Source: Chiloscyllium plagiosum (Eukaryota). Taken from it: DNA of 64,000 nucleotides. This document shows, piece after piece, positions 5,153 through 57,400 of this stretch. The translations under genes and the position numbers were made by a program. The stretch lies in assembly GCF_004010195.1 (NCBI RefSeq), contig NC_057718.1, forward strand, positions 98,903,794 to 98,967,793, given 5' to 3'. The notes under the pieces were generated by a model. It searched no databases and was not told the origin of the DNA. It saw nothing but the letters and a program-made list of their open reading frames with translations. Each line of letters starts with the position of its first letter. Position 1 is the first letter of the stretch.

Positions 5153-5374
5153 CACTAGTGTACTCACTTTGACAAACATCAGCAAGGCGGTACATTTCTC
5201 CTTTACTTCTCCTTTACTCATTAATTTTTACCTTGTACTCCTCCTATTGCATCCTTATCTTTAACAAAGACTATATAAATAATAATGGTTAATTTTGGAA
5301 GTTTTGCAAAAGCTGAAGTACAATTTGCACCATGTGCAGATACTTATATCTGAAAACACTGTTTAAATTTGAAC

Positions 5375-15439: not shown

Positions 15440-16735
15440 TTATAGCAAAAATTTAATCATTTCAGATTTAAAACTATTAACTGATCCAGTATTCACCGCC
15501 ATTTGTGGAAGAGTGTTCCAAACATCTATCACCCTTTATGTGTAGAAGTGTTTCTAATTTTTTTCCTGAGTGGTCTGGAATTCTCAAATTATGCCTCCCA
15601 GTTTTAGAATTCCCAACCAGTGGAAATAGTTTATCCTTATCTACCTTATCTTTTCCTATAAGTAGCTTGAAGAGTTGATCAGATCACCCCCTAACCTTCT
15701 AAGTTCTGGAGAAACCATCTAAATTTGTATAATCTCTCTTCATAACCCTAAAGTCCAGGTTTCAATTTGGTAAACCTATATTATACTCCTTCCAAGGCTA
15801 AGGTTTGATGCCCAGATCTGCTCACAGTACTCCAAGCAGAGTCTATCCAGGGTTTTGCATAACAGTAGCATAACCTCTATCCTTATACTCTAGTCCTCAA
15901 TATATTTTTTCTAAACTTTAAAGATCTAAACAGTCTGAATCCCCAAGTCTCTTTGGATATCCATTGTATTTATCTTCATACCATTAGAAAGTACCCTGAT
16001 CTATCCTTTTCTAGTCCAAAATTGATAACCTCACACTCACTTATATTGAACTTCATCTGCCACAGTTTTGCCCATTCACTTGGTCTATCAATATCCCTTT
16101 AGAATTTTATACGATCATCTACAATGTCTGTAATTCCATCTAACTTTGTGTCATCAGCAGATTTGGATGCATGACTTTCTATGCCATTATCCAAATCACT
16201 TAATAAATAATGAGTAACTGAGGCCCTAGCGCAGATCCTTGAAAGACACCACTGGTCACATCCTGCTAATTTGAGTATTTACACATTACTCCTACCTTTT
16301 ATCGCTTGCCTCTCACTCAATTTCCCAGCCATGTCAGTAACTTGCCCTCAATTCCGTGGGCTTCCACCTTATGTTACAGTCTCTTATATGGGACTTTATC
16401 AAACGCCTTCTACGAGTCCAAATAAACAACGTCCATAGACATTACCCTGTCCACTATCTTAATCACCTATTCAGAAAATTCACTGAGGTTTACCAGACAT
16501 GACCTACCTGTCATGAATCCATGCTGATTCTTCCTGGTTAAGTGGAAATTTTCTAGGTGTTCAGTTACCTCATCCTTGATTATAGCCTCCAACTATTTCC
16601 CCACCATAGATGTTAGTGTAATTGGTCTGTAATTCCCTGAGTTTTCCTCTTTCCCCATTTTTAAAAAGCGGAGTGATTTGAGAACTATTTTCCAATGCAG
16701 AGGGATGACCCTGTTTCTAGGGAACCCTGAAAGAT
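15440..16735 (-). mobile_element. Old CR1-like LINE RT fragment
   Basis: ENSGNYRPITLTSMVGK plus decayed RT sequence. Confidence 0.7.
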
Positions 16736-16739
16736 TATA

Positions 16740-16930
16740 AAAACCGAAAGAACTGTGGATGCTGTAAATCAGAAACAAAAATTGAAATTGCTGGAAAAGC
16801 TCAGCAGGTCTGACAGCGTCTGTGGAGAGAAATCAGAACTCACTCGACCCGAAATGTTAACTCTGATTTCTCTCCACAGATGCTGCCAGATCTGCTGAGC
16901 TTTTCTAGCACTTTCTGTTTTTGTTTCTCA
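16740..16930. repeat. Penelope-type inverted-repeat element (copies also at 52550-52790, 59600-59825, 60890-61010)
   Basis: gaaaagctcagcaggtctg...cagatctgctgagcttttc arms. Confidence 0.65.
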
Positions 16931-16964
16931 AAGATTATAGTCAGGTCATCTATAATGTGTTCCC

Positions 16965-18372
16965 CTAAAAGCCAGGGAACTATAGACCAGTGAGCCTGAT
17001 GTCGTTGGTGGGCAAGTTGTTGGAGGGAATCCTGAGGGACAGGATGTACATGTATTTGGAAAGGCAAGGTCTGGTTAGGGATAGTCAACCTGGCTTTGTG
17101 CGTGGGAAATCATGTCTCACAAACTTGATTAAGTCTTTTGAGGAAGTAACAAAGTGGATTGATGAGGGCAGAGTGGTGGACGTGATCTATATGGACTTCA
17201 GTAAGACGTTCAACAAGGTTCCCCATGGGAGACTGGTTAGCAAGGTTAGATCTCATGGAATACAGGGAGAACTAGCTATTTGGATACAGAACTGGGTCAA
17301 TCGTCGAAATCAGAGGGTGGTGGTGGAGGGGTTTTTCAGACTGGAGGCCTGTGACCACTGGAGTGCCACATGGATCGGTGCTAGGTCCACTACTTTTTGT
17401 CAATTATATAAATGATTTAGATGTGAGCATAAGAGGTACAGTTAGTAAGTTTGCAGATGACACCAAAATTGGAGGAGTAATGGACAGGCTACTGTCAGAT
17501 TACAAGGGGATCTTGATCAGACCTCAGATTACAACCAGATCTTGATCAGATGGGCCAATGGGCTGAGAAGTGGCAGATGGAGTTTAATTTACATAAATGC
17601 AAGGTGCTACATTTTGGGAAAGCAAATCTTAGCAGGACTTATACACTTAATAGTAAGGTCCAAGGGAGTATTGCTGAACAAAAAGACCATGGAGTGCAGG
17701 TTCACAGCTCCTTGAAAGTGGAGTCGCAGGTAAATAGAATAGTGAAGAAGGTGTTTGGTATGTTTTCCTTTATTGGTCAGAGTATTGAGTATAGGAGTTG
17801 GGAAGTCATGTTGCGGCTGTACAGGACATTGGTTAGGTCACTTTTGGAATATCACGTGCAATATCGGAAGGATATTGTGAAACTTGAAAGGGTTCAGAAA
17901 AGATTTACAAGGAAGTTACCAGGGTTGAGGGATTTGAGCAATAGGGAGAGGTTGAATAGGCTGGAGCTGTTTTCCCTGGAGCTGAGGGGTGACCTTATAG
18001 AGGTTTATAAAATCATGAGGGGCATGGATAGGATAAATAGACAAAGTCTTTTCCCTGGAGTGAGGGAGTCCAGAACATGAGGCCATAGGTTTAGGGTGAG
18101 AGGGGAAAGATATAAAAGACACCTAAGAGGAAACTTTTTCCACATAGAGGGTGGTAAGTGTGTGGAATGGGCTGCCAGAGGAAGTGGTGGAGGTTGGCAC
18201 AATTGCAACATTTAAAAGGCATCTGGATGGCTATTTGAATAGGAAGGGTTTGGAGGGATATGGGGAGGGTGCTGGCAGGTGGGACTAGATTGGGTTGGGA
18301 TATCTGGTTGGCATGGATGAGTTGGACCGAAGGGTCTGTTTCCGTGCTATACATCTCTATAACTCAATGATT
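16965..18372 (+). mobile_element. 5'-truncated CR1 LINE
   Basis: RT ORFs 16990-18080 (FADDTKIGG) and 3' tail. Confidence 0.92.
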
Positions 18373-18489
18373 CTACTTCCTTTAACATCCTCAGATTGAA
18401 ATTGTCACTCTTCAATTTCCTCATTACTGATGTTTTACCTGTGTGAATTTCATTCAGTCCCTATTCCTGTTCAATTATTCATTTCCTCA

Positions 18490-20965
18490 GGACTTCCTCA
18501 GGCTAGCAAAGATGATCCTCAATAGGACTGACAGTAACAGAGTAATTGCTATGGGTGCTTCAACATTCCAAATATTGACTGGGAATACTATAGTTCAAGT
18601 ACTTCAGATGGGTCAGTTTTTGTCCATTATGTGCAGGATGGTTTTCTGACACAGTATATAGAAAGACCAACAAGGAGTGAGGCCACATTAGATTTGGTAC
18701 TGGGTAATGAACCCAGCCTGGTGTTATATTTGGAGGTAGGTGAGCACTTTGGTGATAGGGACCACAATTCAGTCATGTTTACCTTAGCGATGGAAAGGGA
18801 TAGGTATACACGAAGGGCAAGAGCTACAGGTGGGGCAAAAGGTAATTATGATGCGATTAGACAAGATTTAGAATGCATAGGATAGGGAAGGAAACTGCAG
18901 GGGGTGGGCACAATAGAAATGTGGAGCTTACTCAAGGAACAGCTTGGGTAGGTCATGCCTCACAATCCTTATCGAGTTCTTTGAGAAGGTGACCAAACAG
19001 GTGGATGTGTGTCCTTGCTAAGTATGTATCTGTCAGACAGGGAGGAAGTTGTCGAGCACAGGAGCTGTGGTTTACTAAGGAAGTTCAATCTCTTGTCAAG
19101 AGGAAGAAGAAGGCTTATGTCAAGATGAGATGTGAAGACTCAAGTTAGGGTGATTCAGAGTTACAAGGTAGCCAAGAAAGACCTAAAGAGAGAGATAAGA
19201 CAAGCGAGGAGGGGATATGAGAGGTTGTTGGCAGATAGGAGCAGGGAAAACCCTAAAGCTTTCTATGGGTATATAAGGGATAAAAGAGTGACTAGAGTAA
19301 GATTAGGGCCAATCAAGGCCAGTAGTAGGATGTTGTGCATGGAATCAGAGGAGATACAGGAAGCACTGAATGAATATTTTTCATCAGTATCCACCCTGGA
19401 AAAAGACAATTATGAAAAGGAAAATTTTGAAAAACAGGCTACTAGACTAGATGGGATTGAGGTTCACAAGGAGAAGGTGTTAGAAGTTCTGGAAAGTGTG
19501 AAATTAGATAAATCCCCTGGGCCGGATGGGATTTATCCTAGGATTCTCTGGGATGCTAGGGTGGAAATTACTGAGACTTGGGCTTTGATCATTATGTCAT
19601 CATTGTCTACAGGAATAGTACCAGAAGACTGGAGGATAGCAAATATTGTTTCCTTGCTCAAGAAGGGGAGTAGAGACAACCTTGGTAATTATAGACCAGT
19701 GAGCCTTACTTCAGTTGTGAGTGAAGTGTTAGAAACGTTTATAAGAGATAGGATTTATAATCATCTCAAAAGGAATAAGTTGATTAGAGATAGTCAACAT
19801 GGTCTTATGAAGGGTAGATCGTGTCTCAGAAACCTTATTGAGTTCTTTGAGAGGGTGACCAAACTGATAAAGCCGACAATCTGGTGTATATGGATTTCAG
19901 TAAAGCATTTCCCATGGTAGTCTACTGCACAAAATATGGAGACATGGGATTGAGGGTGATTTAGCGGTTTGGATCAGAAATTGGCTAGCTGAAAGAAGAC
20001 CGAGGATGGTGGTTGATAGGAAATATTCATGCTGAAGTTCAGTTACTAGTCATGCACTGCAAGGACCTGTTTTGGGTCCACTGCTGTTTGTCATTTTTAT
20101 AAACAATCTGGATGGGAGTGTGGAAGGGTGGGTCAGTAAATTTGCGGATGACACTATGGTCAGTACAGTTGTGGACAGTGCCAAAGGATATTGTAGGTTG
20201 CGGAAGAACATAGATAAGCTGCTGAGCTGGGCTGAGAGGTGGCAAATGGAGTTTAATACAGAAAAGTGTGAGGTGATTCACTTTGGAAGGAGTAACAGGA
20301 ATGCAGAGTACTGGGTGAATGGTAAGATTCTTGGTAGTGTAGATGAGCAGTTGATAGAGCTGTTAAGAAAGCATACGTGTGCGAGCTTTTATTGGTAGAG
20401 GGATTGAGTTTCGGAGTCATGAGGTCATTCTGCAGCTGTGGCCGACTTGGAGTATTGCGTACAGTTCTGGTCACCGTATTATAGGAAGGATGTGGAAGCT
20501 TTGGAAAGGGTTCGGAGGAGATTTACTAGGATGTTCCCTGGTTTGGAGGGAAGGTCTTACGAGGAAAGGTTGAGGGACTTTAGGCTGTTTTTATTAGAGA
20601 AGAAGTTTGAGAGGTGATATAACTGAGACACATAAGATAATCAGAGGGTAAGATTGGGTGGACAGTGAGAGCCTTTTTCCTTGAATGGTGATGACTAGCC
20701 CGAGGGGCATAGCTTCAAATTCAGGGGTGATAGATATAGGGCAGATGTTGGAGGTACTTTCTTTACTCAGAGAGTAGTAGGGGCATGGAATGCACTGCCT
20801 GCAACAGTAGTAGAGTAGCCAACATTATGAGCATTTAAATGGTCATTGGATAGGCATATGGATGAGAATGGAATAGTGTAGATCAGATGGGCTTCAGATT
20901 GGTTTCACAGGGCAGCGCAACATTGAGAGCTGAAGGGCCTGTCCTGTGCTGTAATGTTCTATGTT
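18490..20965 (+). mobile_element. CR1 LINE of a second subfamily, decayed ORF2
   Basis: LDLVLGNE, KSPGPDGIYPRIL, NYRPVSLTS, FADDT; tail tgttctatgttct. Confidence 0.9.
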
Positions 20966-29851: not shown

Positions 29852-30292
29852 TTAATTCTGGTCCTGAATAACATACCGTAAATCAACAATTAAATTTGCT
29901 GTTTCTACAGCTACATGCAAAGCATTAAGTTTCACTGAGTAAGAGTCCAATACTAATTGATCCGGGAAATACCCACTGGGTCTCTCAAGGGGCAATTCTA
30001 GGCTCACTATTTCCGCCCTATTACCTAAAACAATCCAGTTTAGATTTGGTTCTGCTGTGTATAAACCACAAGCACATCTAGAAAATACTTCTGACCAGTC
30101 TGTGTGCAGAGGCATCTTGGGCAGAACTGACCAACGATGGGAATACTTAGTATCAACAAAGTTCTCACCACCATCATGTTCCAGTGAAGAGGCAGTACGC
30201 TGCAATGAGCGGCAGAAACTGTCAGCAACAATTCCATATTCAGATCGAGAGCAGCCCAACTCCGCTAACTTATCATCAGTCACAGTTTGGCT
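29852..30292 (-). CDS. MKKS: MKKS last coding exon (441 nt including stop)
   Basis: Acceptor ctcttttcacag|AGC, phase 0. Encodes SQTVTDDKLAELGC...SLEHDGGE...CACGLY...LDSYSVKLNALHVAVETANLIVDLRYVIQDQN*. Confidence 0.95.
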   Translation of the reverse strand, partial: SQTVTDDKLAELGCSRSEYGIVADSFCRSLQRTASSLEHDGGENFVDTKYSHRWSVLPKMPLHTDWSEVFSRCACGLYTAEPNLNWIVLGNRAEIVSLELPLERPSGYFPDQLVLDSYSVKLNALHVAVETANLIVDLRYVIQDQN

Positions 30293-30402
30293 CTGTGAAA
30301 AGAGTTCAGCTTAGAAAATGCTCCACAATTTTCAATCACCAGCATGTTCAAACATGCAATTTTTTAACTAGTGAAAATTAACTAGGTTTCACCATTATTT
30401 AA

Positions 30403-37629: not shown

Positions 37630-37811
37630 CTTTAGCTCATTCACTCCAGCTTCACTTCGATTACATAGTAACAAACTACACACAGGCTTATTCTCATTTG
37701 GGATCAGATGCAGGAATTGCTTGAAACCAAACTTCACAATGTGCAGGTTCTTAATAATGCCATAGCAGTTAGGGAGAATAGGATGATAATATGAACTAAT
37801 GGATTGTGCAC
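37630..37811 (-). CDS. MKKS: MKKS coding exon 2 (182 nt)
   Basis: Acceptor ttttcatttactag|GT, donor AAG|GTAAGT. Encodes (G)AQSISSYYHPILPNCYGIIKNLHIVKFGFKQFLHLIPNENKPVCSLLLCNRSEAGVNELK; phase 1 in, phase 0 out. Confidence 0.95.
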
Positions 37812-38474
37812 CTAGTAAATGAAAAATGGCCAAAAATTACAAAACAGCAACATTATAAAGAAGCAGAGTAAACCATGAGATAAATGCATTTAGATTTGTA
37901 AAAATTCAACAACATTCCATTACAAATTAATATTTCAGATACTGCAGCACATCAATAAAAATCATTGAATCAAACATAAACTAATGGAACATGAATTAAA
38001 CATGAGCTATTACATGCTCAAGTGTAAAGCTTTGATGGTCAAACAACTGAAGAATAAACAAGCAATTTACCAGAGCAAGTGTGCTATTAAACATTCATTA
38101 AAAAAACAAAGAATCTCTTAATAATATTACAATTCAAACACAGAATCTTACAGCACAGTGGAAGACATTCATCCCATAATGTCTGTGCCATCTCTTTAAA
38201 ATTAAATTCTCTCTTTATACTAGTAGATTTGCAGTATTTATTCAGCAGATAAGAATGAAAAGTAAATATATTTGTAATATTGGTTGCAGAAAAACCTTTT
38301 GAAATGTTATAATATTATCAATTTATTTGTGATTCTGATGTACCTGCCATTATAAGTTTTGCAATATATTCTACTGTCCTGAATGATAGGTAAGAAAATT
38401 TGTTGTACTGTACTAAGAGGATGGAGCACCCATCAGGAAAATCATATTACTCTGGCATAGAGATCACTTAACCA

Positions 38475-44700: not shown

Positions 44701-45599
44701 GAATTAAATTCAAAATTTGTCCTTCCACTAAATTAGCTTTCTGTATAAAGCATTCTGAAGCCGACACTTAAGTAATCATTGCAATTGAGACAGCAGCGTG
44801 TAGCAGTGAAAGAGAGCATGCGAGAATTAGTTTTTCACTCATTTTGTTTACAAATAGACTTTGTTTTGATAGATTCATGAAACACGATATTTCTCCATTT
44901 CATACTTATGGCTAATGACTTACTTTTGAAATAAACTACTCTTTTTCCAAACTTGATCTGGTCTTCAGACAAAGGGTGCATGTAGAAGAATTTGTGGCTA
45001 AGAATGTATCCTTGTAGGATCCAGTCCCTGAACAATGTCAAAACTCTGTATGACTATGACTCTGATTGTTCGAGCTTATATTTTCTTGCCAACCATTATT
45101 TTCATCATTCCTGTATTATTTTAGCTATACTAAGGTTGCTGTTAGCGATCATTTTTTGGCAATGGAGGATGCTGGTTAATCAAGTATACCGATAGACAAA
45201 GATCCAAGTTAAATTCCATATTTTCATCAAATCAGAAAGCTCCTGAATGATCCCATAGTAATGCAGGTATTGAGATTCCACAATAGCTGGAGCATGCAAA
45301 ATTAGTGAGCTGCACCGTTGGAACATGATATTGTAAGGCAGAGACCAGAGTTAGGGCAGGCTTCCAATAAGAATGACCAACGAGTTTGACAATTGTGAGC
45401 ATTTGTGAGACAGTGGGACTGATGTGGAATGAGTGTTAACATTGATTTCTGATGGGCAAGTGACACCTCCAGTCCCAGAATTCTAGTTAATAGAGATTTC
45501 AATGCAAGGTATCAGAAGTTTTCTGAGATAGGTATTTAACCATTTTTTGAGACCTATTCAAATTAGCAATCTACACTGAAAACAGCAACGTTCATTCTA

Positions 45600-45965
45600 A
45601 TAGGTAATAATAATCCAGAGACCCAGGCCAATACCGTGGAAACAGGTGTTCAAATCCCACAATGGCAACCGGTAGAATTTAAATTCAATTAATAAAATCT
45701 GAGATCAAAAGCTGGTCTCGGTGCTGGTGATCATGACAACTATCATTAGTTGTTTTAAAAATTCATTTGGTTTATCATTATTCTTCGGGGAAGAAAATCT
45801 GCCATTCTTACCTGGTCTGGCCTTCATGTGACTCCAGATCTAAAACAATGTGGTTGACTTTTAAATGCCCTCTGAAATGGTCCAACATGTCACTCAGTTC
45901 AAGGGCATTTAGGGATATGCAACAAATGCTGGCCTTGCGAATGAAGCCCACGTCCCATGATAATT
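45600..45965 (+). mobile_element. Shark SINE with a LINE-derived tail (partial copy at 32700-32930)
   Basis: B-box-like gttcaaatccc; the block aaatctgccat...gactccaga...aaatgccctctgaa...gcaacaaatgctggcc is shared between the two copies. Confidence 0.65.
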
Positions 45966-46815
45966 TTTAAAATTATATTTATTGACTGAAAACTGATTTT
46001 TTTTCATATTCTGATCACCGCTAATATTTCATATTTATTCATATTCTTCTACTGTTTACATCCTCCATTTTGTACAATTCCTCAGCAACGCGTGCAGGTG
46101 GGATAACATGCTCCCAAGTCTCTCTGCTGGTCACTATGGGTGAGCAATTGTGCAAGAGCAATGGGAGATTAGCTCACATATTTTCTTATGTTCTCTTGCC
46201 ACCTCTTGTACCCAGTTTGGATGACACAGAATTTATCATGTAGGAAACTGCAAGGACAAACTTGATGACTAATATTCTGTAGCCAAGCGCCAAGGATTTG
46301 TTTTTAGAAGTGCTAAAAGTAGCATCAAATGTTGAGAGGAATGACTGATTCTTAGGTCAGGTTGCTGATGTACTTTTATCTGACAAAACAGCACCTTTTG
46401 ATGTCTGATTTTCAACTGGGTATAGATATCAATTGCTGCTAGGTAGAATGGGAATCTAAACAGCAGGCAATTAATCTGATGGCCAAAAGAACCTTCAGTC
46501 ACATTTACATAGAAAATCGGTTTTGGATCACAGAATTAAATAAGTCACACAACTAGGTTAATGATATCATATTTATGATTTTAAGAAATTCTTACCACAG
46601 ACAATTGATGTAAGGCTTAAGTTATTTGTCTATTCCTCTTGCCTCCTAGGAATAAGCCTTAGGGAGTTAAAACAAAAAACAACTAAACAACCTATACAAA
46701 AACAAAGAACATATGTACACTTGCACCTTCAAAGTCTGAACCTAATCATAAACATCACATATCACTATCAGACGCACTAGTTGAAGTAAATATTGTTAGT
46801 GATTAACATACCAAC

Positions 46816-47800
46816 CTGTCATTTGAATCAGAGGCTCCATGAGGGCAACTCCAAGTCTATCTCCTACCATCACTTGTTGCTCCTGGAGATATTGTTTTAG
46901 AACAGGATGGATCACTCGCTGACACAAAACAAGGTGAACTTGGTCATAAACTAGCTGTTTTCCCACCTTCAGCAGCTGTGCAAGTGATTCATCTTCAGGA
47001 CTGAAATCTGGTGTCACCTCCCAGGTTCCATTCCCACTGTCAACAACATCTCCTGACATGGAAACATTGAATACAGCAATCTTAATGTAACCAAATGTCA
47101 ATTTTGTAATATCAACTGTTGTTGAAGGAGATGAAAATATCTCTATAAGGATCCCAGAAAGCACACAGGAGTCAGAAACACTTTGCCCCTCAATGGGAAC
47201 AATCTGCATCTTTCCCAAAGATACATGATCTCCAATCACAGATGGTATTGTGTAAAAGAATGCCTTTAACACTAAGGAACTGATGTAGTCAGCTTCTTTT
47301 GTAGTCAACATACAAGTAGGCTTATTTATCATTGTACGAACAAGTGAAAGCAAAGTCTTGCTGTTACTAAAATCTATTTGTATTCTGCAGCTACATTCCT
47401 CAGAAGTTAGATAGTCAAGGCAAATATTCAGAAGGTGTTTATGGATTTTGACAATGTGACTGCTTGGTACATTAAGTTGTTTTGCATTTTCAGCCAAATT
47501 ACAGCAGAGAATCGCTGTAAAAAGTCCAGAATCACTAAATCGAGAAACATGATTCAGCACGGAAGCTATTAGCAACTTCATCACAGGATGGGACACAGAA
47601 AGATTACGCAAAAGCGCAGAAGACTGTGATGTGGTTAGAACGTAGCCTCCTACAGCATTGTGAATTAGTTTTAGTCTACCAAATGGGCCATAACAGGACT
47701 CCACAATTCCTCTGAGAGTGGAAAGAGCCTGACAAAGTACATCACTATTTAACTGTCCAGAACTGCATGAAGATGCTATTTTAGGTGAAATTGAGGCCAT
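46816..47800 (-). CDS. MKKS: MKKS/BBS6 chaperonin-like protein, coding exon 1 (985 nt from the second ATG; an in-frame ATG also lies at 47803)
   Basis: ORF 46796-47803 reads SCYGPFGRLKLIHNAVGG...SDSGLFTAILCCNL...CQRVIHPVLKQYL...DRLGVALMEPLIQMTG, recognisable as MKKS. Donor ACAG|GTTGGT at 46816/46815, phase 1. The ATG at 47800 has A at -3 and G at +4. Confidence 0.96.
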
Positions 47801-47856
47801 CATTCAGGTAGAGTAGTGGAAGGTCTGAAAACAGCACACTTGCAAAGATTAGTTGG

Positions 47857-47862
47857 TTTATT
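47857..47862 (-). terminator. Candidate poly(A) signal for a short uORF-only transcript
   Basis: AATAAA on the minus strand followed about 20 nt downstream by GU-rich GTGTGCTGTTTTC; lies between the uORF2 stop and the MKKS ATG. Confidence 0.6.
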
Positions 47863-48064
47863 ATTTTCAAAATGAACCGAAATTTAACATGCAGCACTTC
47901 TCCTCTGATCATTAAAATGCTTGTACATTCCAAATGTGCCAGTCATATTATAGAAGATGAAAGTTATTTGAAATTCCCATTGAAATATATTTCAATGCTA
48001 AACCAACTAGAAGAGCAAAATTTGGATGCATTGTAAAAGATTTATCTTGCTTGACATTTCATTA

Positions 48065-48211
48065 TTATTTATCTATATTCTTCTGCTTCAGTTCTAAACT
48101 TGTTGATTTTTTTACAAACTTCTGCATCAGATATGTTACAGTATGGATTCCAAGTAAGGACAGTCCTGCCACTAGAAGCCAATTTTTGCGAAACCATGCT
48201 TTATTTCTCAT
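48065..48211 (-). CDS. MKKS upstream ORF 2 microprotein (48 aa, single TM; uMKKS2-like)
   Basis: MRNKAWFRKNWLLVAGLSLLGIHTVTYLMQKFVKKSTSLELKQKNIDK*; the W.RKNWLLVAG motif matches mammalian uORF2 as I recall it. ATG at 48211 has A at -3. Acceptor ttttctatttgcag| at 48262. Confidence 0.9.
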   Translation of the reverse strand: MRNKAWFRKNWLLVAGLSLLGIHTVTYLMQKFVKKSTSLELKQKNIDK

Positions 48212-48484
48212 TCTTCTGTAAGGATGCGACAACGAAATATCTGCATTCCAATTTAATATTATCTGCAAATAGAAAATATGTACAGTTAAATTGTGCTTTG
48301 AAAACATTAAGTTTTCAAATCATATAATCTACATCATTGTGGAGACTATGTAGTCTATCATGCCTCTGGCTCTGAAATAGTTTAAATCCAAACTTCGGCC
48401 TGGACTTACTCATATACCTGCAAATTTGTCCTTTTCAAGTACATATCCAATTGACTTTAATACGTCACTGTGAAATCTGATTCC

Positions 48485-51000
48485 ACAAAGACCTAAGGGG
48501 CAACTTTTTCACACAAGGTGGTACGTGTATGGAATGAGCTGCCAGAGGAAGTGATGGAGGCTGGTACAATTACAACATTTAAAAGGCATCTGGATGGATA
48601 TTTGAATAGGAAGGGTTTTGAGGAATATGGGCCAGGTGCTGGCAGGTGGGACTAGATTGGGTTGGGATATCTGGTCGGCATGGATGAGCTGGACCAAAGG
48701 GCCTGTTTCCATGCTGTACATCTCTATGACTCTATAACTCTTTCAATTTAAGTCCAATTTAAGTACAGGAGTTGGGAGGCCATGTTGCAGCTGTACAAGA
48801 CATTGGTTAGGCCACTTTTGGAATAATGCATGCAGTTCTGGTCTCCTTCCTATCGGAAAGATGTTGTGAAACTTGAAAGAATTCAGAAAAGATTTACAAG
48901 GATGTTGCCAGGGTTGGAGGATTCGAGCTATAGGGAGAAGTTGAATAGGATGGGGTTGTTTTCCCTGAAGCATCGGAGGTTGAGGGGTGACCTTACAGAG
49001 CTTTATAAATTCATGAGGGGCATGGATATGATAAGTAGACAAGGTCTTTTCCCTGAGGTAGGGGAGTCCAGAATTAGAGGGCATAGGTTTAGGGTGAGAG
49101 GGGAAAGTGGTGGTGGGCGGCACGGTGGCACAGTGGTTAGCACTGCTGCCTCACAGCGCCAGAGACCCGGGTTCAATTCCCGCCTCAGGCGACCGACTGT
49201 GTGGAGTTTGCACGTTCTCCCCGTGTCTGCGTGGGTTTCCTCCGGGTGCTCCGGTTTCCTCCCACATCACAAAGATGTGCAGGGTCAGGTGAACTGGCCA
49301 TACTAAAATTGCCCGTAGTGTTAGGTAAGGGGTAAATGTAGGGGTATGGGTGGGTTTCGCTTCGGCGGGTCGGTGTGGACTTGTTGGGCCGAAGGGCCTG
49401 TTTCCACACTGTAATCTAATCTAATCTAATCTAATCTAATCTAATCTAATCTAATTTTATATAAAAGAGACCTGGGGCAACTTTTTCAGGCAGAGGGTGA
49501 TACGTGCACGGAATGAGCTGCCAGAGCAAGTGATGGAGGCTGGTACAATTGCACCATTTAAAAGGTATCTGGATGGGTATATGTATAGGAAGGGTTTGGA
49601 GGGATATGGGCCAAGTGCTGGCAGGTGGGACTAGATTGGGTTGGGATATCTGGTCGGCATGAACGAGTTAGAACGAAGGGTCTGTTTCCATTCTGTACAT
49701 CTGTATGTATGATGGAAACACACCCTTTAGTGCAACTCATGCATGCTGACAAGGTTTCCTAAACTGAACGAGTCCCATTTGCCTGCATTTGGCTCACTTC
49801 CCTCAAAACCTTTCTTTTCCATGTATCTTTACAAATATCGTTCAAATGTTCTAACTGTACCCATTTCTATCACTATCTCTGGCAGCTCATACCACATACA
49901 CACCATCCTCTATTTAAAAAAGTTGCCCATCACTTCACTTTTAAATCTTTACCCTCTCACCTTAAATTTATGCCCTCTAGATCTGGGCTTCCCTTCCCTA
50001 GGAAAAAGACCTTGGCTATTCCCTTTATCTATGCCCCTCATGATTAAAAAAAAACTTGAAGGTCACCCGTCTGTCCCACTCGAGAGAAAAAGTCCTAGCC
50101 TCTCTTCATAACGCAACTTCCAATCTCAGTAACATCCTTGTAAATCTTATTTGCACCTTTCCAGTTACTGTACGCAGAACTTCAAATGTGACCTTACCAA
50201 TGTCTTGTAAAGCTATAACATGACATCCCAACTCATGTACTCAATGCTCTGACCAATGAATGCAAGTGTGCCAAATGCCGCCTTCATCAACCTGTTTACC
50301 TGTGACACTACTTTTAAGGAACTATGTACCTGCACCCCTAGGTATCTGTTTGTTTTAAGGCAGAGACATATTGATTCTTGTTAAGCATAGGGGTGAAAAG
50401 GTTAGGAATTGGGAGGTCATATTGTGGCTTACAGGACATTGGTTAGGCCATTTTTGGAATTGTGTGTCCAATTCTAGTCTCCTTCCTATTGGAAGGATGT
50501 TGTAAAATTTAAAAGGGTTCAGAAAACATTTACAAGGAGGTTTCCAGGGTTTGAGGATTTGAGCTATGGGGAGAGGCTGAATAGGCTGGGGATGTTTTCC
50601 ATGGACTGTCAGAGGCTGATGGGTGACCTTTAGAGGTTAATAAAATCATGAGGGTCATGGATAGGGTAAATAGATAAGGTTTCTTTTCCAGGGTGTGGGA
50701 GTCCAGAACTAGAGGGTACAGATTTAGGGCGAGAAGGGAAAGTTATAAAAGGGACCTAAGGGACAAAGTTTTCATACAGAGAGTGGTCTGTGTATGGAAT
50801 GAGCTGCCAGAGGAAGTGGAGAAGGCTGGTACAATTACAGCATTTAAAAGGCATCTGGATAGGTACATAAATAGGAAGGGTTTAGAGGGATATGGGCCAA
50901 GTGCTGACAAGTGGGACTAGATTAGGTTAGGATATCTGGTCTGCATGGACAAGTTGGACCGAAGGGTCTGTTTCTGTGCTGTACATCTCTGACTTTATAA
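48485..51000. mobile_element. Cluster of CR1 3' fragments in both orientations in the intron between the two uORF exons
   Basis: Fragments at 48485-48740 (+), 48760-49710 (+), 49710-50345 (-) and 50400-51000 (+). Confidence 0.85.
49114..49454 (+). mobile_element. Young HE1-type SINE inserted into a CR1
   Basis: CpG-rich, intact A/B-box-like motifs, perfect (CTAAT)n tail; splits the CR1 sequence ggggaaag/atataaaagagacc. Confidence 0.9.
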
Positions 51001-51979
51001 ATTTTATCAGGGTTAAGTGGGAATGCAGACTTAAGGCAAGAAACCTGATCAGTTAGGATCTTATTGAATGGTGGGGCAGGCTCGAAGGGCTAAATGGTTT
51101 ACTCCTCGACCTTGTTTGTATTTTTGTAAGCCAAGCATCCCATTCAATTTCTTATCCACCTTCTAAATTTGCCCTGGCACCTTCAAAGATTAAAGAACCT
51201 GCACTGCAGATTCACATGTTCATACATCCTCCTCAAATTAGCACCAATTAGATGATACTGTCTTTCCATGTTATTGCTCACAAACTGTAATCACTTCAAG
51301 TATATCCAAAATTAAAATTTCACTACCCATTTTTCAGTTTATTTTCTCACTTACGTCCCCTTCTTCTCCTGAACTCTACTATTATCATGCTCAATTATCG
51401 CATTACCAAGATCATAATGGGTTCCTAATTTTGGAATTGTATTCAAATCTTGGTCATTTCAATAATAAGAGTAATGGCTTTGGCGGATTTCAGTACATAC
51501 TAAGTTCCTATATATTTAAAAGCCCCAGAAATGACACCAAATCCTACTTTTCTTCTATAAATTTGCAAACTATCGCAGTTTGCATGTTAAGGATGTTTTA
51601 ACAGAACTTGACAAAAGCTGCATCAAACATATATCTTTTGTTTAAACCCCTGTGTTTTTGTTGAGTTACCACCTACCCCTCCCCCCCCCAAAAAAAGACA
51701 GTCAGCATGACCTCTGACCAATTCAAGGAAAGCACGAAAGACACCTGAAACTATTCACCTGCTCTCCCATATTCATAATAAAATTAAAAGGGATATTTGC
51801 ATCTCAAAAATACAGTCGTTTGCTTGTATTGCTACAAAATAGATGAGATGCTACAAAGTACTTATAGCCCAGTTTTGTGTATTTTTGCACACTTTTCAAC
51901 CATCATAATTTCGGAGTTGATTTTCCTATTCTTGACATAATTTATGAAGGGAGTATGGCTTACCTAGCAAATCCAGTCA

Positions 51980-52171
51980 CTAATTTGCCTTTGGTTGGCT
52001 TTCCTTTTGGATGATGCTCGTCACAATTTCAGGCTGTGAAATATAGTCTTGGTTTCTGTTCTTGAAGGTTTCACTAGACTTCATATTGTACCATCCCCAA
52101 TGAATCAATGTTAGACTTGTTCCCATAACAATTAAAACTCTGTAGTTTTTCCAGACAGTTTTAAGACTCAT
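51980..52171 (-). CDS. MKKS upstream ORF 1 microprotein (63 aa, single TM; uMKKS1-like)
   Basis: MSLKTVWKNYRVLIVMGTSLTLIHWGWYNMKSS... resembles human MKKS uORF1 as I recall it (MSLRNLWRDYKVLV...LIHLGWY). It fills a leader exon with acceptor ggcag|52190 and donor TAG|GTAAGC at 51964. Confidence 0.9.
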   Translation of the reverse strand: MSLKTVWKNYRVLIVMGTSLTLIHWGWYNMKSSETFKNRNQDYISQPEIVTSIIQKESQPKAN

Positions 52172-52899
52172 GTCTGATTTAAATAATCACCTGCCAATAC
52201 AATAACATTTAATCAGTGAAATATGAATGTCACAGCATTTAAAAGAGGTCAGAAGGGTTAGGAGAGTTAGAACAATATTGGAGATTAGACACAGGGTAAA
52301 GCAGAGACATGTAGACAATTGAAAATTAAGATTTTAAAATCAATGAAGTCAGAGATCAGGATCGATGGCTGCAGAGAACATGTGTTAGGATGTGAACTAT
52401 TGACTGAAAGAAAGGTTGGACCTTATGACAAGACAGGAATTAGAAAGATCAAATAATAAGCAGTCTTGAGTCAATGTGCTTGTGACTCATTTCAAAGACG
52501 AGTAAGGCACCAAGGTTAAACAGGGACTTTTAATAAAATGTGTGTCATCAGGCAAACAAAAATGGAAGAAGCTAGAGAAACTCAGCAGGTCCGGCAGAAT
52601 CTGTTGAGAAACCAGAACCAATGTTCCAGATTTAGTGAGACTTCAGCAATCTCAATAAAAACTGAAAGAACTGCAGATGCTGTAAAATCAGAAACAGAAA
52701 CTGCTTGAAAAGCTCACCAAGTCTGGCAAAATCTGTGGAGAGTTATCAGAGTTAATGTTTCAAGTCGAGTGGCCCTTTCTCAAAACTGGGGACTTCTATC
52801 ATTGCTTCAGCAATCTCAGTTTTGTAAACAACATAGCAAAAGAGAAAGATATACTGAATGGTTTCAACCTTGCCTGAATTGTTAAACAGAAATGCTGCT

Positions 52900-53675
52900 T
52901 AGGTGCCAGTGTTGGACTGGGGTGGACAAGGTCAGAAGTCACACGACACCAGGTTATAGTGCAAAGGTTTATTTGAAATCACAAACTTTCAGAGTGCTGC
53001 TTCTTTGTCGCGACTTCATCTGATGTAGGTGCAGCGCTCTGAAAGCTTGTAATTTCAAATAAACCTGTTGGACTATAACCTGGTGTTGTGCGACTTCTGT
53101 CCTTGTTGAACAGAAATACAACATGATTTGGAGATGCCGGTGTTGGACTGGGGTGTACAAAGTTAAATATCACACAACACCAGGTTATAGTCCAACAGGT
53201 TTAATCGGAAGTACACTAGCTTTCGGACAATCACCTGATGAAGGAGCATCGCTCCGAAAGCTAGTGTACTTCCAATTAAACCTGTTGGACTAAAACCAGA
53301 AATACAACATTCCACCTAAGTCTGTCTGTCTCGCAATCAACATTGAGGGTACAAAAAATTACATCTCTGTCACCAGGTTATAGTCCAACAGGCTTATTTG
53401 GAAATACAAGCTTTTGGAGCACTGCTCTTTCGTCAGGTGAAGTCTCTGATGAAGGTGCAGCGCTCGGAAGGCTTGCCCTTCCAAACAAACCTGTTGCTTG
53501 GAACCTGGTGTTGTGAGATTTTTAACTCACTGATGAAGGGCTTTTGCCCGAAACGTCGATTTTCCTGCTGCTCGGTTGCTGCCTGACCTGCTGTGCTTTC
53601 CCAGCACCACTCCGATCTTGGCTTAAGACTTTTAACCTTGTCCACCACCCCAGTCCAAAACTGGGCGTCACCTTG
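52900..53675. mobile_element. Cluster of Penelope-type terminal inverted repeats with hammerhead motifs
   Basis: Three caccaggttatagt...aacctgtt hairpin units plus a second-family insert at 53528-53626. Confidence 0.75.
53530..53557 (+). ncRNA. Minimal hammerhead ribozyme motif
   Basis: CTGATGA-A-GGGC-TTTT-GCCC-GAAA-C-GTC: catalytic boxes, stem II, palindromic ACGT stem III, GUC triplet. Identical core on the minus strand at 5886-5913. Confidence 0.65.
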
Positions 53676-53879
53676 TCAACCTCATTAACACACTTGTGGC
53701 ATCTTTGCTGTGTGAACATTTGGGAGTTTCCGGCCCCGGCATTTATTTGCTATCTGCATAGGGTGCAGGGACACGAAGCGGCTTTGGGGTGTCTGGAGAT
53801 GGAGATAGGCGCTATTTAAATGCAAAATATAGGGGGGGTTCAAAGGCCTACATGAGAAACGAGGAAGTACTTTACCTCA

Positions 53880-54450
53880 CAGCAGCGCCTCTCGCTTCAG
53901 CTGAGGCTCTGCCTGCGGTGTTATGTACGTGTGTGTCTGGATGATTTTTAAAGGGTTTAAATGAGCCGTAAGAACACCTCTCCCTCGCCCTCGCCCTCTC
54001 CCCTCAGGCTCTCACTCACCTTCAGCCACTCCGCCATTGCACACAGGCCCAAGGACCTTCCCGCGTCACTCCTGCTCCACCGTGAACAAAACAAATAAAA
54101 GGAAGCACGGGGCACCGAACGAAATAAACTGTTCGAAATTTAAAAAAAAAAGGTAACTGCGACCGGGCTGAAATGTATTATCAGTTTTTTTTAAAAGAAA
54201 AACAAAAATCAGGCATTAGCGTAGGCAGCTATATATTATTTAATACCTGTTTTTTTTATAAAGAATGTGTGAGGGGGAGGGGGAGGGGGCTTTCGGCTGT
54301 TCCTGGCTCTCATGGGGATCGCTGCAGCTTCACAGTTTCTCCCAGAAAGCCCCCCCTGGCTCCCGGCGGACGGTTAGCGCATGCGCCGCGTGAACCCCCA
54401 TTTGAACAGGCGGCGGGTTCGAAACGGTTAGTGAGGGCGAGGGGAGTTGA
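53880..54450. promoter_or_regulatory. CpG-rich bidirectional promoter MKKS / SLX4IP
   Basis: Main non-repeat CpG-dense stretch in the window. NRF1 core GCGCATGCGC at 54377-54386, CRE half-site CGTCA near 54064, outward-facing donors at 54019 (-) and 54427 (+, ACG|GTTAGT). Confidence 0.75.
54020..54070 (-). other. MKKS: Probable MKKS first (leader) exon; TSS uncertain
   Basis: Consensus donor AAG|GTGAGT at 54020/54019 inside the CpG-rich region; alternative donor GAG|GTAAAG at 53876. Confidence 0.55.
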
Positions 54451-57400
54451 TGGTGGTGTTCGGGGATGGTGTGGTGGTGAAGAGTTGTGGGTGGGGTGTA
54501 GTGCGGAGTTTGGGGTTGAGGGGGTGATGGTGTGAAGGGTTGGTNNNNNNNNNNNNNNNNGGGAGCTATTGGAGAGTTGAGGGAGGGTGGGGAGTGCTGA
54601 GAGGGATAGGGAAGATGGAATGCTAGTGGATGTGGCGATGTTGGATGACTGAGCCTGAGGGGAGTAAATGGAGTGGAGATGGGTGGTGGGTGAAGGAATA
54701 GGAAATGGATAGGGGAGATTGGGAGCTGGTGGAAAGTTGCTGGGGCGTGGGAGAGTAGGAACTGAATTGGGCCCATGTAATTATTGATAATTTACATAGC
54801 AACCATCAAAATTTGTTCCTTAAAGGAAGGCGATATGACAATAGTCTAGGGAGAACAATGAACATTGATTGTTGACAGCTGCTATTCTAAGTCTGGATTC
54901 TATTTCATGCATGCATATTTATATTTCTGAGTGCTGTTACTATATCTATCCAAAGGAAAGAGAATCCTAGTGGATCTGAAAACTGTTGAGGAATTGCACT
55001 TGAAATTGTTCTTAATAAAGTTGTGACTTACCTACTGTGATCTTTGGAAAGCTGCAGAGCCATGAGAAAGGAATGGGTTGGATTATATCCTTACAAGGAA
55101 TGTGAAAGGTAGTTTTTAGCCATCTCCAAGATTGCAGAGGAACCCAGAAGCCAGGAGTAATTTGCTTTCAGAGATTTAAATAAAGCGGTTGAGCCAGATA
55201 TCACCGAAGTTCTGTCTACCCATTTAGGTGGGCATGAAAGATATCCAGAAGCGATACCCAAAATTAAGTAAATATGATGGCTAATATTTGCCTTGAACTG
55301 TTATGCCTAAAATGGATTATTAGATCATCTATTTTGTTTGTGGATTGCCTGTGTGTAATTTGACTGCTACAGTTATTAGATTACAACATTAGTTACAGTA
55401 CAGAAATATTTTATTGATCATGGAACTTTTTCGACCTCCTGAATTCAAGAATGGCACTCATGAACGAACAAATCTTGGGCGTACACTGTAAAGCTTTGGC
55501 TGTCATATTGAATATGCTACCAAATTTCAAAGCTCTGTATCAGGGTGGATTGAGAAACTTGTTACAAAAGTGCGCAAAGTGTTATGTTTTTCATTCATTC
55601 TTCATTTTATTTGCACTGGAAAGAATGGAAGTAATTTTAACAAGTGTGTCCCTTGGGAAACTGATGGGATCCGATCCATCAGTTTCCTACTGGGAACATT
55701 GGCTTAAAATTACCCATTTTATGGTATGCTATTCATATTTGCAATAACTTATAAAGTAAACCTACATACTGCTTCATTCAAAGCATGGGCAAAACTTTAG
55801 GCCTGCTGTCATGTGCTCCATATATATTACTTGGTGCAAAACTTGCAATATATATCTATTTAAATATTTAACATAGCTGTAAGCCTTTCAGGATAACTTG
55901 GTTCAATGGCAAAATTATAATTTCAAAATTCTGTATTGGAATATGTTTCAGGAAACTTAAAACCCACACATGTCAAATGGGAGAGGAAAGTCACAGTTGT
56001 TGAGCAAGTAATGTCAGATTTATTCTGTCAATTATTGCAGAAGTTTCAAAATTATCCAGAAATATATAGGACCATTAACATTGGAATACATCAGTTGGCC
56101 TGGTAATGTAGTATGTTGCAAATCAAACAACCTGGGTTTACAGTGGTTGTAGAACTTTTAAAGTGTGCAGGAAACAGGATGGAGGTGTACCAGCCTGGAA
56201 TTTTTAGCCACTTGTTGGCAAGCTGGTATACAGGCATGGTCTTACCACCATGCTATTTATAAGCAGACTGATAACTACCCCCTGAATGATGCTCCCTGCC
56301 ACAAGCAGTGGTTAGCCAACTGAGGCCATTGGATCCTTCTAGCATGCTGACTGGAATTTTCTAGCCAACAAGTGATCCCCGCTGAAGAGGCCAAAAGGTA
56401 GCCAGAAAAATTAGGTGGCCTTCTGGTAGCAGACCGGAAGGGCCAGTATTCTGATTCATTAGTTATTAATCATTCACTCTCACTCCTTTCGCTCCTACAC
56501 CCACCAACCTTCCAACTTGCTAATGGCTGCAGGCCACTATACAGACACAATCTGGTTAGCTGTGGCCCATTGTATTTTCAAAGATTTTAGAAGTGCTGAG
56601 AGAGTGCTTCTCCATCTTAAGGAGCCATCTTCCTCTTTTATCTGCCACGGGGGTTGCAGCTTTCTTGCTGCTGGAGGGGCTCCAGTTGGCCCTCCAACTT
56701 TGGGATTTTGATCCTGTCCATTAGTAGGGTGGTGAGTACACTCTCTGGCGAATCCGCAAAACCTGCGTTAGGCATGGCACCCATGCCATGTTTGGTCAGG
56801 ATCTGGACACAATCCCCGCATTGGTGCCGTGATACCAGAACAAAGATCCTGCTTTTTTGGTAGAGATTAACATCTGTGACTTCTTACCCTGTAGTGTACA
56901 GAAGTACAATCTCCAAAAGTGGTCCAGTGGATGTTACTGTGGACTCTTCTTGGAGTTTCTCATTTGTAACCACAAGTGATTGTTCTGAAATATCAGTAGC
57001 AGACTTTTGGAGGAAGCAGCCTTCTTATTCTTCGATAAGAGGGTACAACTGGATCAGAGAGATTACAAAGGGTGAAGCTAGATTTTTTTTTGATTGGAGG
57101 AAATTATATGTTTGGACTAGACTTTGTTGCATGTTTTGTGCATTGAATGCCACAATTCAGAAACTATGTTAAAGTAATTGCCTTGTTTTTAAATCACCTG
57201 TGCAGTTTTATAGTCAATTGCCAACCAGTGTGGTTATGTTTAGAGATTTGTTTAAATTCAGTCTGGCAAAAATCCTTTGACAGCTCCTCCAGTATATTTT
57301 AGTCCAAATTGTAGAGGCTGTAGATATTGGGTGTAAGTTGTAACTGTAAACAAGCTGAGACTTGATCAGCCTGCTTGTAAGCACATTGTAAAAGTTACTT

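Follow-up and report, generated by a model that had tools for sequence, protein, structure and literature searches.

Microproteins encoded upstream of MKKS

The human MKKS leader is among the best documented vertebrate mRNAs for several unrelated proteins. The human 63-aa uMKKS1 sequence contains the tryptic peptide reported for it by mass spectrometry (PMC8448870), human uMKKS products occur in the mitochondrial membrane fraction and repress MKKS (PMC11837024), and repression by the human MKKS upstream ORF (uORF) is sequence-dependent (PMC7530721). A 2026 study describes the human 63-aa product as the dominant protein of the locus in brain, with a knock-out that lowers respiration and with proximity labelling at the outer membrane (PMC13577902), and a preprint links LOC128706665 to complex IV through a predicted interaction (10.1101/2024.10.01.615885). 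MIEF1-MP and the SLC35A4 uORF protein are similar in being conserved peptides upstream of an unrelated ORF, for which a dual role as protein and brake is proposed (PMC7530721, PMC10908861); they differ in having no sequence relation to the MKKS peptides, and the MKKS leader carries two in tandem.

Here we analyzed a 64,000-nt stretch of the genome of the shark Chiloscyllium plagiosum (the window), which holds what we read as the 5' end of MKKS (BBS6) on the minus strand, with a leader that codes for orthologues of uMKKS1 and uMKKS2, both predicted to be translated into single-pass membrane, likely mitochondrial, proteins and to repress the chaperonin ORF (probability about 0.85). The MKKS leader microprotein system has already been described; the shark locus is an ordinary further member and reveals no new kind of system. 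The searched literature yielded no published statement that the MKKS microproteins are conserved in chondrichthyans or more deeply.

Layout of the shark locus and contig support

On the minus strand, the uMKKS1 exon is followed by a single exon holding both uMKKS2 and the MKKS ATG, and then by the downstream MKKS exons. The leader contains the following features (slashes mark exon borders here, and start codons further below):

54020..54120, minus strand: putative exon 1 of the MKKS transcript, 3' end at 54020, proposed placement with an approximate 5' limit
52179..54037, minus strand: possible uORF0 of 9 codons, ATG at 54037 and TAA at 52181-52179, spanning the proposed exon 1-exon 2 junction
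51964..52190, minus strand: exon 2, 227 nt, with the uMKKS1 ORF and canonical AG (...TTGGCAG/) and GT (/GTAAGC) borders
51980..52171, minus strand: uMKKS1 orthologue, 63 codons plus stop, from the ATG ORF list and homology
46816..48262, minus strand: exon 3, 1447 nt, comprising uMKKS2, the AUG-rich spacer and 988 nt from the start of the MKKS CDS, on RNA contigs in 4/4 runs
48208..48246, minus strand: 12-codon ORF ending in a TGA that overlaps the ATG of uMKKS2 (ATGA), from the spliced-leader map, ORF only
48065..48211, minus strand: uMKKS2 orthologue, 48 codons plus stop, from the ATG ORF list and homology
47804..48064, minus strand: spacer from the uMKKS2 stop to the MKKS ATG, with 8 further ATGs on the spliced-leader map
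47857..47862, minus strand: AATAAA motif within the spacer that may correspond to the polyadenylation site of the human 5'UTR; contigs read through it

The donor of putative exon 1 (AAG/GTGAGT at 54020, read from the sequence) and the acceptor of exon 3 (TTTTCTATTTGCAG/, first exon base 48262) are both canonical. On the spliced-leader map the uORF0 ATG stands in the context TGTGCA/ATGG, with G at -3 and at +4; this ORF is conditional on the proposed exon 1-2 junction and on a transcription start upstream of 54037.

Contigs from four runs (four studies, three species labels) cover the locus; their RNA nature is a guess, for which the support is their exon-limited cover. Contig depth over exon 3 is 61.5-509, against 0-0.29 in the adjacent intron bin (48288-48424). 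In three of the four runs one contig extends unbroken from 48264 to 46814/46816, and in run X2 the contig spans 48264 to 47244, with a break at 47244-47246. Indels in the X6 contig (5+1) and the X9 contig (5+8) all fall in the spacer, at 47808, 47848 and 47979. Since no break separates 48264 from the MKKS start codon (47803) in these contigs, uMKKS2 shares its exon with that codon. The first-pass annotation, which gave each ORF its own spliceable exon, was thus wrong for uMKKS2; uMKKS1 lies in a 227-nt exon predicted from canonical borders. In position uMKKS2 falls after uMKKS1 and ahead of the MKKS ATG, and the contigs that hold it also carry the MKKS start, a contig being no proof of one molecule.

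The contigs stop fitting at 48264 and then carry 223-759 more upstream letters: 223 in run X9, close to the 227 nt of exon 2, and 249, 747 and 759 in the others. These last three values exceed the length of exon 2, and more upstream exon sequence therefore exists. That exon 2 ends in AG would explain why the contigs still match for 2 nt beyond the acceptor of exon 3 (up to 48264). The putative junctions 54020>52190 and 51964>48262 are consistent with these lengths, and the lengths together with homology suggest that uMKKS1 may be expressed in this shark.

The downstream ORF encodes a chaperonin, probably MKKS rather than BBS10, BBS12 or CCT, and both small ORFs lie upstream of it as placed earlier. 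Its coding parts are:

46816..47803, minus strand: first MKKS (BBS6) coding part, ATG at 47803, Pfam Cpn60_TCP1
37630..37818, minus strand: next MKKS coding exon, approximate borders, colinear tblastn match of snake model P0037 (52% identity, E 2e-13)
29852..30310, minus strand: open frame with the last MKKS coding exon, tblastn match of P0037 at 30295-30173 (49%, E 5e-8)

The ORF matches Pfam Cpn60_TCP1 with E 3.3e-44, and three colinear exons match the Crotalus protein labelled MKKS (P0037) at 49-60% identity, the end of the first coding exon (MEPLIQMTG) aligning to this model. P0037 also joins the start of uMKKS1 to MKKS exons, colinear with the window. An Atlas feature search of the chaperonin ORF placed the BBS10 cluster first (0.94). 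A second MKKS ATG, at 47800, stands in a more favourable context with A at -3 and G at +4, and a 43-codon ORF in the spacer (47912-47781) overlaps the MKKS start.

Predicted properties of the two peptides

Both ORFs were found intact on the minus strand where they had been reported, the 63-aa ORF exactly at 51980-52171 and the 48-aa ORF at 48065-48211, where it begins at an internal Met (48211) of an 80-aa ATG ORF (48065-48307); the 32 extra codons are intronic because they lie upstream of the exon 3 acceptor. A distance of about 4.2 kb separates the uMKKS1 ORF, in its leader exon, from the MKKS ATG downstream on the same strand. The 192 nt of the uMKKS1 ORF equal the 192-nt ORF listed for human NM_018848. 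Each ORF is present in a single copy in the shark genome. The purine at -3 and the basic N-terminus proposed for both are borne out: the start contexts are TCAGAC/ATGA (G at -3) for uMKKS1 and AGAAGA/ATGA (A at -3) for uMKKS2, and the N-terminal flanks carry net charges of +3 and +4. A single hydrophobic window of 19 residues is present in each peptide, at residues 12-30 of uMKKS1 (mean Kyte-Doolittle 1.04) and at residues 11-29 of uMKKS2 (mean 1.63). For uMKKS1, AlphaFold2 predicts helices at residues 3-9, 11-32, 34-42 and 50-57, and pLDDT is 76-84 for residues 1-30. Neither peptide matches any Pfam family at its cut-off.

Homologues and depth of conservation

Similarity to the mammalian MKKS uORF peptides had been set as a test for both peptides, and the 63-aa shark sequence shares 25 of 57 residues (44%, pairwise E 5e-16) with human uMKKS1 (Q9HB66, 'Alternative protein MKKS', LOC128706665, 'micro-MKKS63'). 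Both proteins have 63 aa, the core MSL..W..Y.VL.VM...L.LIH.GWY, one predicted helix near the N-terminus and a leader-exon location ahead of the MKKS CDS. Their tails differ, with ISQPEIVTS in the shark, PEPGIV in rays, turtles, marsupials and teleosts, and IPEQDSLGLS in primates. The closest database proteins, both candidates matching, are 75% (ray cluster P0001) and 58% (Callorhinchus A0A4W3H8D1) identical, so that no near-identical entry was found among the two. Of 1,835,955,588 proteins, a chondrichthyan uMKKS1 profile matched 34 with E<=1e-3, of which 18 reached E<=1e-10. The 34 include the primate cluster representative P0029 (E 2e-10), whose cluster members include human Q9HB66 / NP_001381077 / LOC128706665. 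Among the 34, P0033 (1547 aa, 14 stretches) and P0039 (641 aa) were excluded as long repetitive proteins, while the fused or long models P0032 and P0037 did not enter the family alignment. H24 and W27 are invariant in 24 rows, and G26 is a further invariant residue. In a language-model feature search the nearest Atlas cluster was 'LOC128706665 homolog' (0.97), and an arthropod-rich look-alike cluster scored 0.93. Among small single-pass proteins that serve OXPHOS as assembly factors or subunits, SMIM20/MITRAC7, UQCC6, CEBPZOS and NDUFB1-type proteins also resemble shark uMKKS1, at feature scores of 0.84-0.85 that count as leads only (<0.9), and they differ in that no sequence homology to it was found.

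All six database candidates for uMKKS2 matched at 69-98% identity, the Chiloscyllium punctatum protein at 98%; Callorhinchus A0A4W3H8C6 is 72% identical, and the alligator 'LOC128706666 homolog', which has the family motif W.R.NWL..AG....H..T(Y/W)L.Q in common with the shark peptide, is 54% identical. A database search retained 41 of 54 candidates at E<=1, from rays, a chimaera, teleosts, crocodilians and one turtle, with no mammal listed among them. Human uMKKS2 (V9GZ13, 50 aa; taken as LOC128706666 by label and neighbouring gene number) is alike in length (48-50 aa) and in its position between uMKKS1 and the MKKS ATG. The NCBI label of the alligator protein and this position make it likely that the shark ORF is orthologous to human uMKKS2. 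Eight columns are invariant in a 33-row alignment, H23 among them. An invariant His, predicted to be membrane-embedded, lies at equal depth in the two peptides (H24 of uMKKS1, H23 of uMKKS2).

The database and pairwise matches uphold the first-pass view that the two ORFs are real and conserved, both peptides being homologous to vertebrate MKKS upstream-ORF families. Both also keep the same order upstream of MKKS, and the arrangement therefore predates the cartilaginous/bony fish split, as had been proposed. A gnathostome-only uMKKS1 profile goes deeper than had been proposed and also picks up proteins of hagfish (E 2.9e-8) and of amphioxus (E 1.7e-9), which suggests that uMKKS1 is older than gnathostomes. 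A Liparis protein model fuses uMKKS1 to uMKKS2. The expectation that annotation would treat these ORFs as UTR is outdated, since NCBI or Ensembl already carry them, as uncharacterized proteins, for rays, a chimaera and several sharks. The 48-aa protein is in NCBI for Chiloscyllium punctatum, Cetorhinus, Mustelus, Scyliorhinus, Narcine and Mobula, and its Pristiophorus record is a UniRef entry; the 63/64-aa protein is in NCBI for Mobula and Hemitrygon, and Callorhinchus has both in UniProt. The shark locus thereby supports treating both ORFs as genes in fish annotation and points to a layout (uMKKS1 exon, then uMKKS2 + MKKS ATG exon, then AUG-rich spacer) fixed in the jawed-vertebrate ancestor. 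H24, W27 and G26 of uMKKS1 and W6-R8-N10-W11-H23 of uMKKS2 offer comparative material for mutagenesis of the human proteins.

Proposed function and alternative readings

By analogy with the human work, both shark ORFs are likely translated into small mitochondrial membrane proteins, and uMKKS1 may have a role in oxidative phosphorylation. Translation of the uORFs would at the same time lower MKKS chaperonin output. The leader has about a dozen upstream AUGs, and because a scanning ribosome meets uORF AUGs first, the MKKS ATG would be reachable only by leaky scanning or reinitiation.

The length of either ORF is not above chance, since ATG ORFs of at least 63 aa and at least 48 aa occur in the window at 0.56 and 1.11 per kb per strand (roughly 0.6-1.1), a rate at which a long AT-rich leader could hold such ORFs by accident. 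Homology is what lifts them above chance: E values of 2e-10 to 1.5e-29 against 1.84 billion proteins, and orthologues of the same length and position across vertebrates, make chance ORFs virtually impossible, and the homology searches rule this reading out. It is highly improbable, too, that the ORFs are purely cis-regulatory, with functionless peptides whose translation just lowers MKKS. Repression of downstream ORFs is a general property of uORFs, and reporter output rose when the human uMKKS start codons were mutated (PMC11837024); against this, amino-acid sequence, length and the invariant His and Trp are kept from amphioxus/hagfish to human, and the human 63-aa protein is reported to be detectable by mass spectrometry and to affect respiration when knocked out (PMC8448870, PMC13577902).

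A more serious alternative, which we still consider unlikely, is that the microproteins come mainly from short transcripts of their own that end before or early in the MKKS CDS, making them a separate gene that overlaps MKKS rather than part of a true polycistron. Human reports describe a short transcript that ends at a polyadenylation site within the 5'UTR (PMC12573267) and 3 of 7 MKKS isoforms that encode the 63-aa protein only (PMC13577902), and the shark has its AATAAA at 47862, between uMKKS2 and the MKKS ATG. In run X2 the uMKKS2 contig has a depth of 61.5 versus 10 for the contig downstream of 47246, although a single depth value for each contig gives no ranking of isoforms. From 46815 this downstream contig is spliced to 46656, where a stop codon comes 8 codons on, and its end at 46017 falls 22 nt beyond the first base of an AATAAA hexamer at 46039. 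The other three of the four runs speak against it; in each, one contig of uniform depth reaches from uMKKS2 through the spacer to the end of the first MKKS coding exon. Short transcripts of this kind are compatible with the polycistronic leader that we favor.

A broader proposal, speculative and rather doubtful, is that uMKKS1 is an ancient mitochondrial microprotein gene of the OXPHOS-assembly type across chordates, perhaps bilaterians; the homologues in amphioxus and hagfish and the arthropod-rich look-alike cluster are compatible with it. uMKKS1 would then be the host and main product at MKKS, the chaperonin ORF would be a poorly translated last cistron behind ~12 AUGs, and the membrane-embedded His (H24/H23) might form a shared cofactor or partner site. 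A complex prediction for uMKKS1 and uMKKS2, run without controls or alignments, scored 0.03 against a mark of 0.34 and has no bearing on binding. As to their relationship, the uMKKS1 HMM reached at best 11 bits on uMKKS2, which is not scored as a match, and hhalign with small alignments gave a probability of 15%. With 34 and 41 rows, hhalign scored 17.9 over 26 columns in the same register, a value reached by 0 of 31 controls (best of 30 column shuffles 16.5, reversed 13.1), which gives a weak hint that the two peptides may have arisen by tandem duplication.

A known polycistronic leader recognized in a shark

The leader of MKKS (BBS6) had been proposed, in a first-pass annotation made from sequence alone, to encode two membrane microproteins of 63 and 48 aa (here uMKKS1 and uMKKS2), and the proposal was correct: what it identified is an already known system in one more species. 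According to citing papers, the system was described in humans by Akimoto et al. 2013; GENCODE annotates the human ORF as a gene, and RefSeq now carries LOC128706665. The MKKS uORF peptides are 'conserved across mammals' in the available text of the review PMC11837024 and are called conserved in other papers, and no mention of cartilaginous fishes together with MKKS uORFs or microproteins was found in the searchable literature. The additions made here are modest: the exon layout, RNA support for the linkage of uMKKS2 to MKKS, and uMKKS1 relatives as distant as hagfish and amphioxus.

ORFs, start codons and splice borders

The leader elements were read as follows:
52171-51980, minus strand: uMKKS1, a 63-codon ATG ORF
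48307-48065, minus strand: longer ATG ORF, whose internal Met at 48211 yields the 48-aa peptide uMKKS2
54020, minus strand: 3' border of exon 1, AAG/GTGAGT
52190-51964, minus strand: exon 2, 227 nt, flanked by TTGGCAG/ and /GTAAGC
48262, minus strand: first base of exon 3, following the acceptor sequence TTTTCTATTTGCAG

The exon borders originally named are canonical splice sites as read from the sequence, and the peptide features described with them hold as well: a purine at -3 of both start codons, a basic N-terminus (flank charge +3 in the 63-aa and +4 in the 48-aa peptide) and a single hydrophobic stretch in each (19-residue window at 12-30 and 11-29, respectively). The AT-rich DNA of the window yields 1.11 ORFs of at least 48 aa and 0.56 of at least 63 aa per kb per strand; ORFs of such length are frequent, and therefore the two by themselves mean nothing. 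Each is present as a single copy in the genome of the window.

Conservation of uMKKS1 and uMKKS2

A word-indexed search with uMKKS1 returned two candidates, neither near-identical to the shark peptide: a 64-aa protein (75% identical, the best), whose cluster includes NCBI 'uncharacterized proteins' from the rays Mobula birostris and Hemitrygon akajei, and Callorhinchus milii A0A4W3H8D1 (63 aa, 58%). Searching 1,835,955,588 representatives with HMMER and a profile built from the shark peptide and these two chondrichthyan relatives identified 34 proteins at E<=1e-3, of which 18 reached E<=1e-10. Cluster names were sought for 19 of these 34 and for the 64-aa protein of the first search (P0001), and 16 of the 20 were named. 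Among primates they include human Q9HB66, 'Alternative protein MKKS' (NP_001381077, LOC128706665), which contains the tryptic peptide that identified uMKKS1 in PMC8448870, as far as that source is available. Other named relatives come from marsupials, sea turtles, Pogona, zebra finch, bullfrog, several teleosts, the hagfish Eptatretus (A0A8C4WSN7) and the amphioxus Branchiostoma lanceolatum (Hypp2666/2675). The expected similarity to the human MKKS uORF product was borne out, with 44% identity over 57 residues.

We re-examined the deepest matches with a profile of 30 gnathostome rows only, scaling E-values to the full library size: amphioxus scored 1.7e-9, hagfish 2.9e-8 and two unnamed proteins 2.3e-9 and 6.8e-8, a check that is not fully independent since all four were originally found with a related profile. 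Three residues (V15, H24, W27) do not vary across the 24 aligned rows, and six more (M1, W7, Y10, V12, L13, G26) hardly do. Pfam assigned no family to uMKKS1 at its cut-off. A language-model feature search of clusters (Atlas), run with 51983-52171, also returned a look-alike cluster of 103 'hypothetical proteins' of ~58 aa (score 0.93; 202 of 256 features in common with uMKKS1), in which the commonest phylum is Arthropoda; if this cluster were homologous, the family would be bilaterian.

For uMKKS2, all six candidates of the first search were elasmobranch 'uncharacterized proteins' of 48-50 aa, one from Chiloscyllium punctatum (98% identity) and the others from Cetorhinus, Mustelus, Scyliorhinus, Pristiophorus and Narcine. 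Once the profile was extended with the part of a Liparis model that resembles uMKKS2, 41 out of 54 candidates matched at E<=1. Among them are Mobula, many teleosts, a turtle, Crocodylus and Callorhinchus A0A4W3H8C6 (72%), as well as a protein from alligator, labelled 'LOC128706666 homolog' by NCBI, with 54% identity to the 48-aa ORF. We take LOC128706666 to be human uMKKS2, from its number adjoining that of the human uMKKS1 gene and from the 50-aa length, as given for uMKKS2 in the accessible part of PMC11837024, rather than from sequence. Eight columns (M1, W6, R8, N10, W11, H23, T26, Q30) are invariant over 33 rows, and the Pfam search of this peptide likewise returned no family at its cut-off. 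Orthologues are thus already in databases for rays, chimaera and, for uMKKS2, several sharks, contrary to the suggestion that annotation would likely treat these ORFs as UTR.

Linkage to the MKKS chaperonin

Downstream of the microprotein ORFs, the frame from the ATG at 47803 to the GT donor at 46816 (minus strand) matches Pfam Cpn60_TCP1 (E 3.3e-44). The top cluster of an Atlas search with this exon was BBS10 (0.94), which confirms the BBS-chaperonin family only. A Crotalus adamanteus protein labelled MKKS (P0037) carries the uMKKS1 N-terminus first and then the MKKS exons, and its tblastn matches to the window are colinear on the minus strand in four stretches:
52171-52091, minus strand: 63% identity, E 2.9e-8
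46858-46814, minus strand: 60% identity, E 0.047
37818-37630, minus strand: 52% identity, E 2e-13
30295-30173, minus strand: 49% identity, E 5e-8

In a Liparis tanakae model (P0027), uMKKS1 is fused to uMKKS2. Both fused public models are likely annotation artefacts from the polycistronic leader; they nonetheless reveal the same order in snake and teleost. Chaperonin-like BBS genes, formerly called vertebrate-specific, have orthologues reported in earlier eukaryotes, according to the part of PMC5534436 available.

RNA contigs across exon 3

Fourteen runs whose RNA nature is a tool's guess, none being recorded as RNA, contain 14-31% of the words of the stretch. We placed contigs on 45000-49100 from four runs (X1, X2, X6, X9), which represent four studies and three species labels. 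In all four, one contig aligns between 46814/46816 (47244 in X2) and exactly 48264, then continues upstream, by 223 letters in X9, 249 in X2, 747 in X1 and 759 in X6. Exon 3 is covered at a depth of 61.5-509, against 0-0.29 for bin 48288-48424 of the upstream intron and 8-27 for the intron that follows 46816; this confinement of cover to the exon supports an RNA origin of the runs.

The contigs thus put the MKKS start on the same exon as uMKKS2 and the spacer between them, which replaces the separate exon first proposed for the 48-aa ORF. Upstream exon sequence is attached to exon 3. An upstream exon with AG as its last two bases, such as exon 2, would account for the fit 2 nt beyond the acceptor; the X9 letters (223 + 2) approximate the 227 nt of exon 2, and two contigs imply ~520 further letters upstream of it. 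We infer that the attached sequence is exon 2 plus exon 1. Relative to the window, the X6 contig has indels of 5+1 nt and X9 of 5+8 nt (at 47808, 47848 and 47979), all inside the 261-nt spacer (47804-48064), with none in uMKKS2 or the MKKS CDS, a weak sign of constraint given so few events.

In another contig of X2 (depth 10), the exon 3 donor is joined 46815>46656 (minus strand) and the contig continues to 46017, where it ends; an AATAAA begins 22 nt before this end, at 46039; the frame past this junction meets a stop after 8 codons, ending in QMTGLFLGGKRNRQIT. The segment 46656-46017 may be an alternative terminal exon, giving a truncated MKKS transcript that would still carry the uORFs. X1, X6 and X9 instead show unbroken low-depth cover of 45000-46843.

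Leader layout and proposed translation

Ahead of MKKS, the spliced leader is ordered as follows:
ATG at 54037, minus strand: possible uORF of 9 codons reaching from exon 1 into exon 2, strong context, first in the leader
uMKKS1, minus strand: second in the leader, with 67 nt from its stop to uMKKS2
ATGA at 48208-48211, minus strand: overlap of the uMKKS2 ATG with the TGA of a 12-codon ORF that lies between uMKKS1 and uMKKS2
eight further ATGs ahead of the MKKS ATG, minus strand: one begins a 43-codon ORF overlapping the MKKS start

Stop/start overlaps of the ATGA kind can allow reinitiation coupled to termination. Of two MKKS ATGs 3 nt apart, the first is preceded by T at -3; the second combines A at -3 with G at +4. 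With the leader AUGs so laid out, a scanning ribosome would meet these first and thus rarely reach MKKS. This layout fits what available portions of the human literature report, namely that the uORFs repress MKKS translation (PMC7530721, PMC11837024) and that the main detectable product is the 63-aa protein, not MKKS (PMC13577902).

AlphaFold2 (24 rows) predicts a helix at 11-32 of uMKKS1; pLDDT is 76-84 for residues 1-30, and confidence is low after that. This model, with the basic N-flank, would suit a signal-anchored single-pass protein. In the accessible text, human uMKKS1 is placed at mitochondrial membranes (PMC11837024), with outer-membrane proximity labelling (PMC13577902), and a preprint, as far as available, ties it to complex IV via a predicted interaction (10.1101/2024.10.01.615885). 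By analogy, we infer the translation, localisation and function of the shark microproteins.

Surroundings of the locus

A G-rich stretch some 340 nt 5' of the exon 1 donor holds the palindromic GCGCATGCGC (54377-54386), a candidate NRF-1 type of site; such sites occur in the promoters of genes for nuclear-encoded mitochondrial proteins. A 16-N assembly gap (54546-54561) lies near the predicted end of two RNA contigs if exon 1 is contiguous. Interspersed repeats occupy 48425-51100 (intron 2) and 45685-45958, with several SINE-like heads (containing ACAGCATGGAAACAGGCCCTT) and LINE-like ORF fragments; RNA contigs stack there at depth 1e3-5e5 with many back-joints and are uninformative on MKKS. 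A (GATTA)n-type run lies near 49420-49470, and short N runs near 10100-10200. Both strands of 5300-20400 carry long open frames that, on visual inspection, resemble reverse-transcriptase (LINE) fragments, among them:
7932-9425, minus strand: LINE-like open frame by appearance
16969-18080, plus strand: LINE-like open frame by appearance
19129-20398, plus strand: LINE-like open frame by appearance
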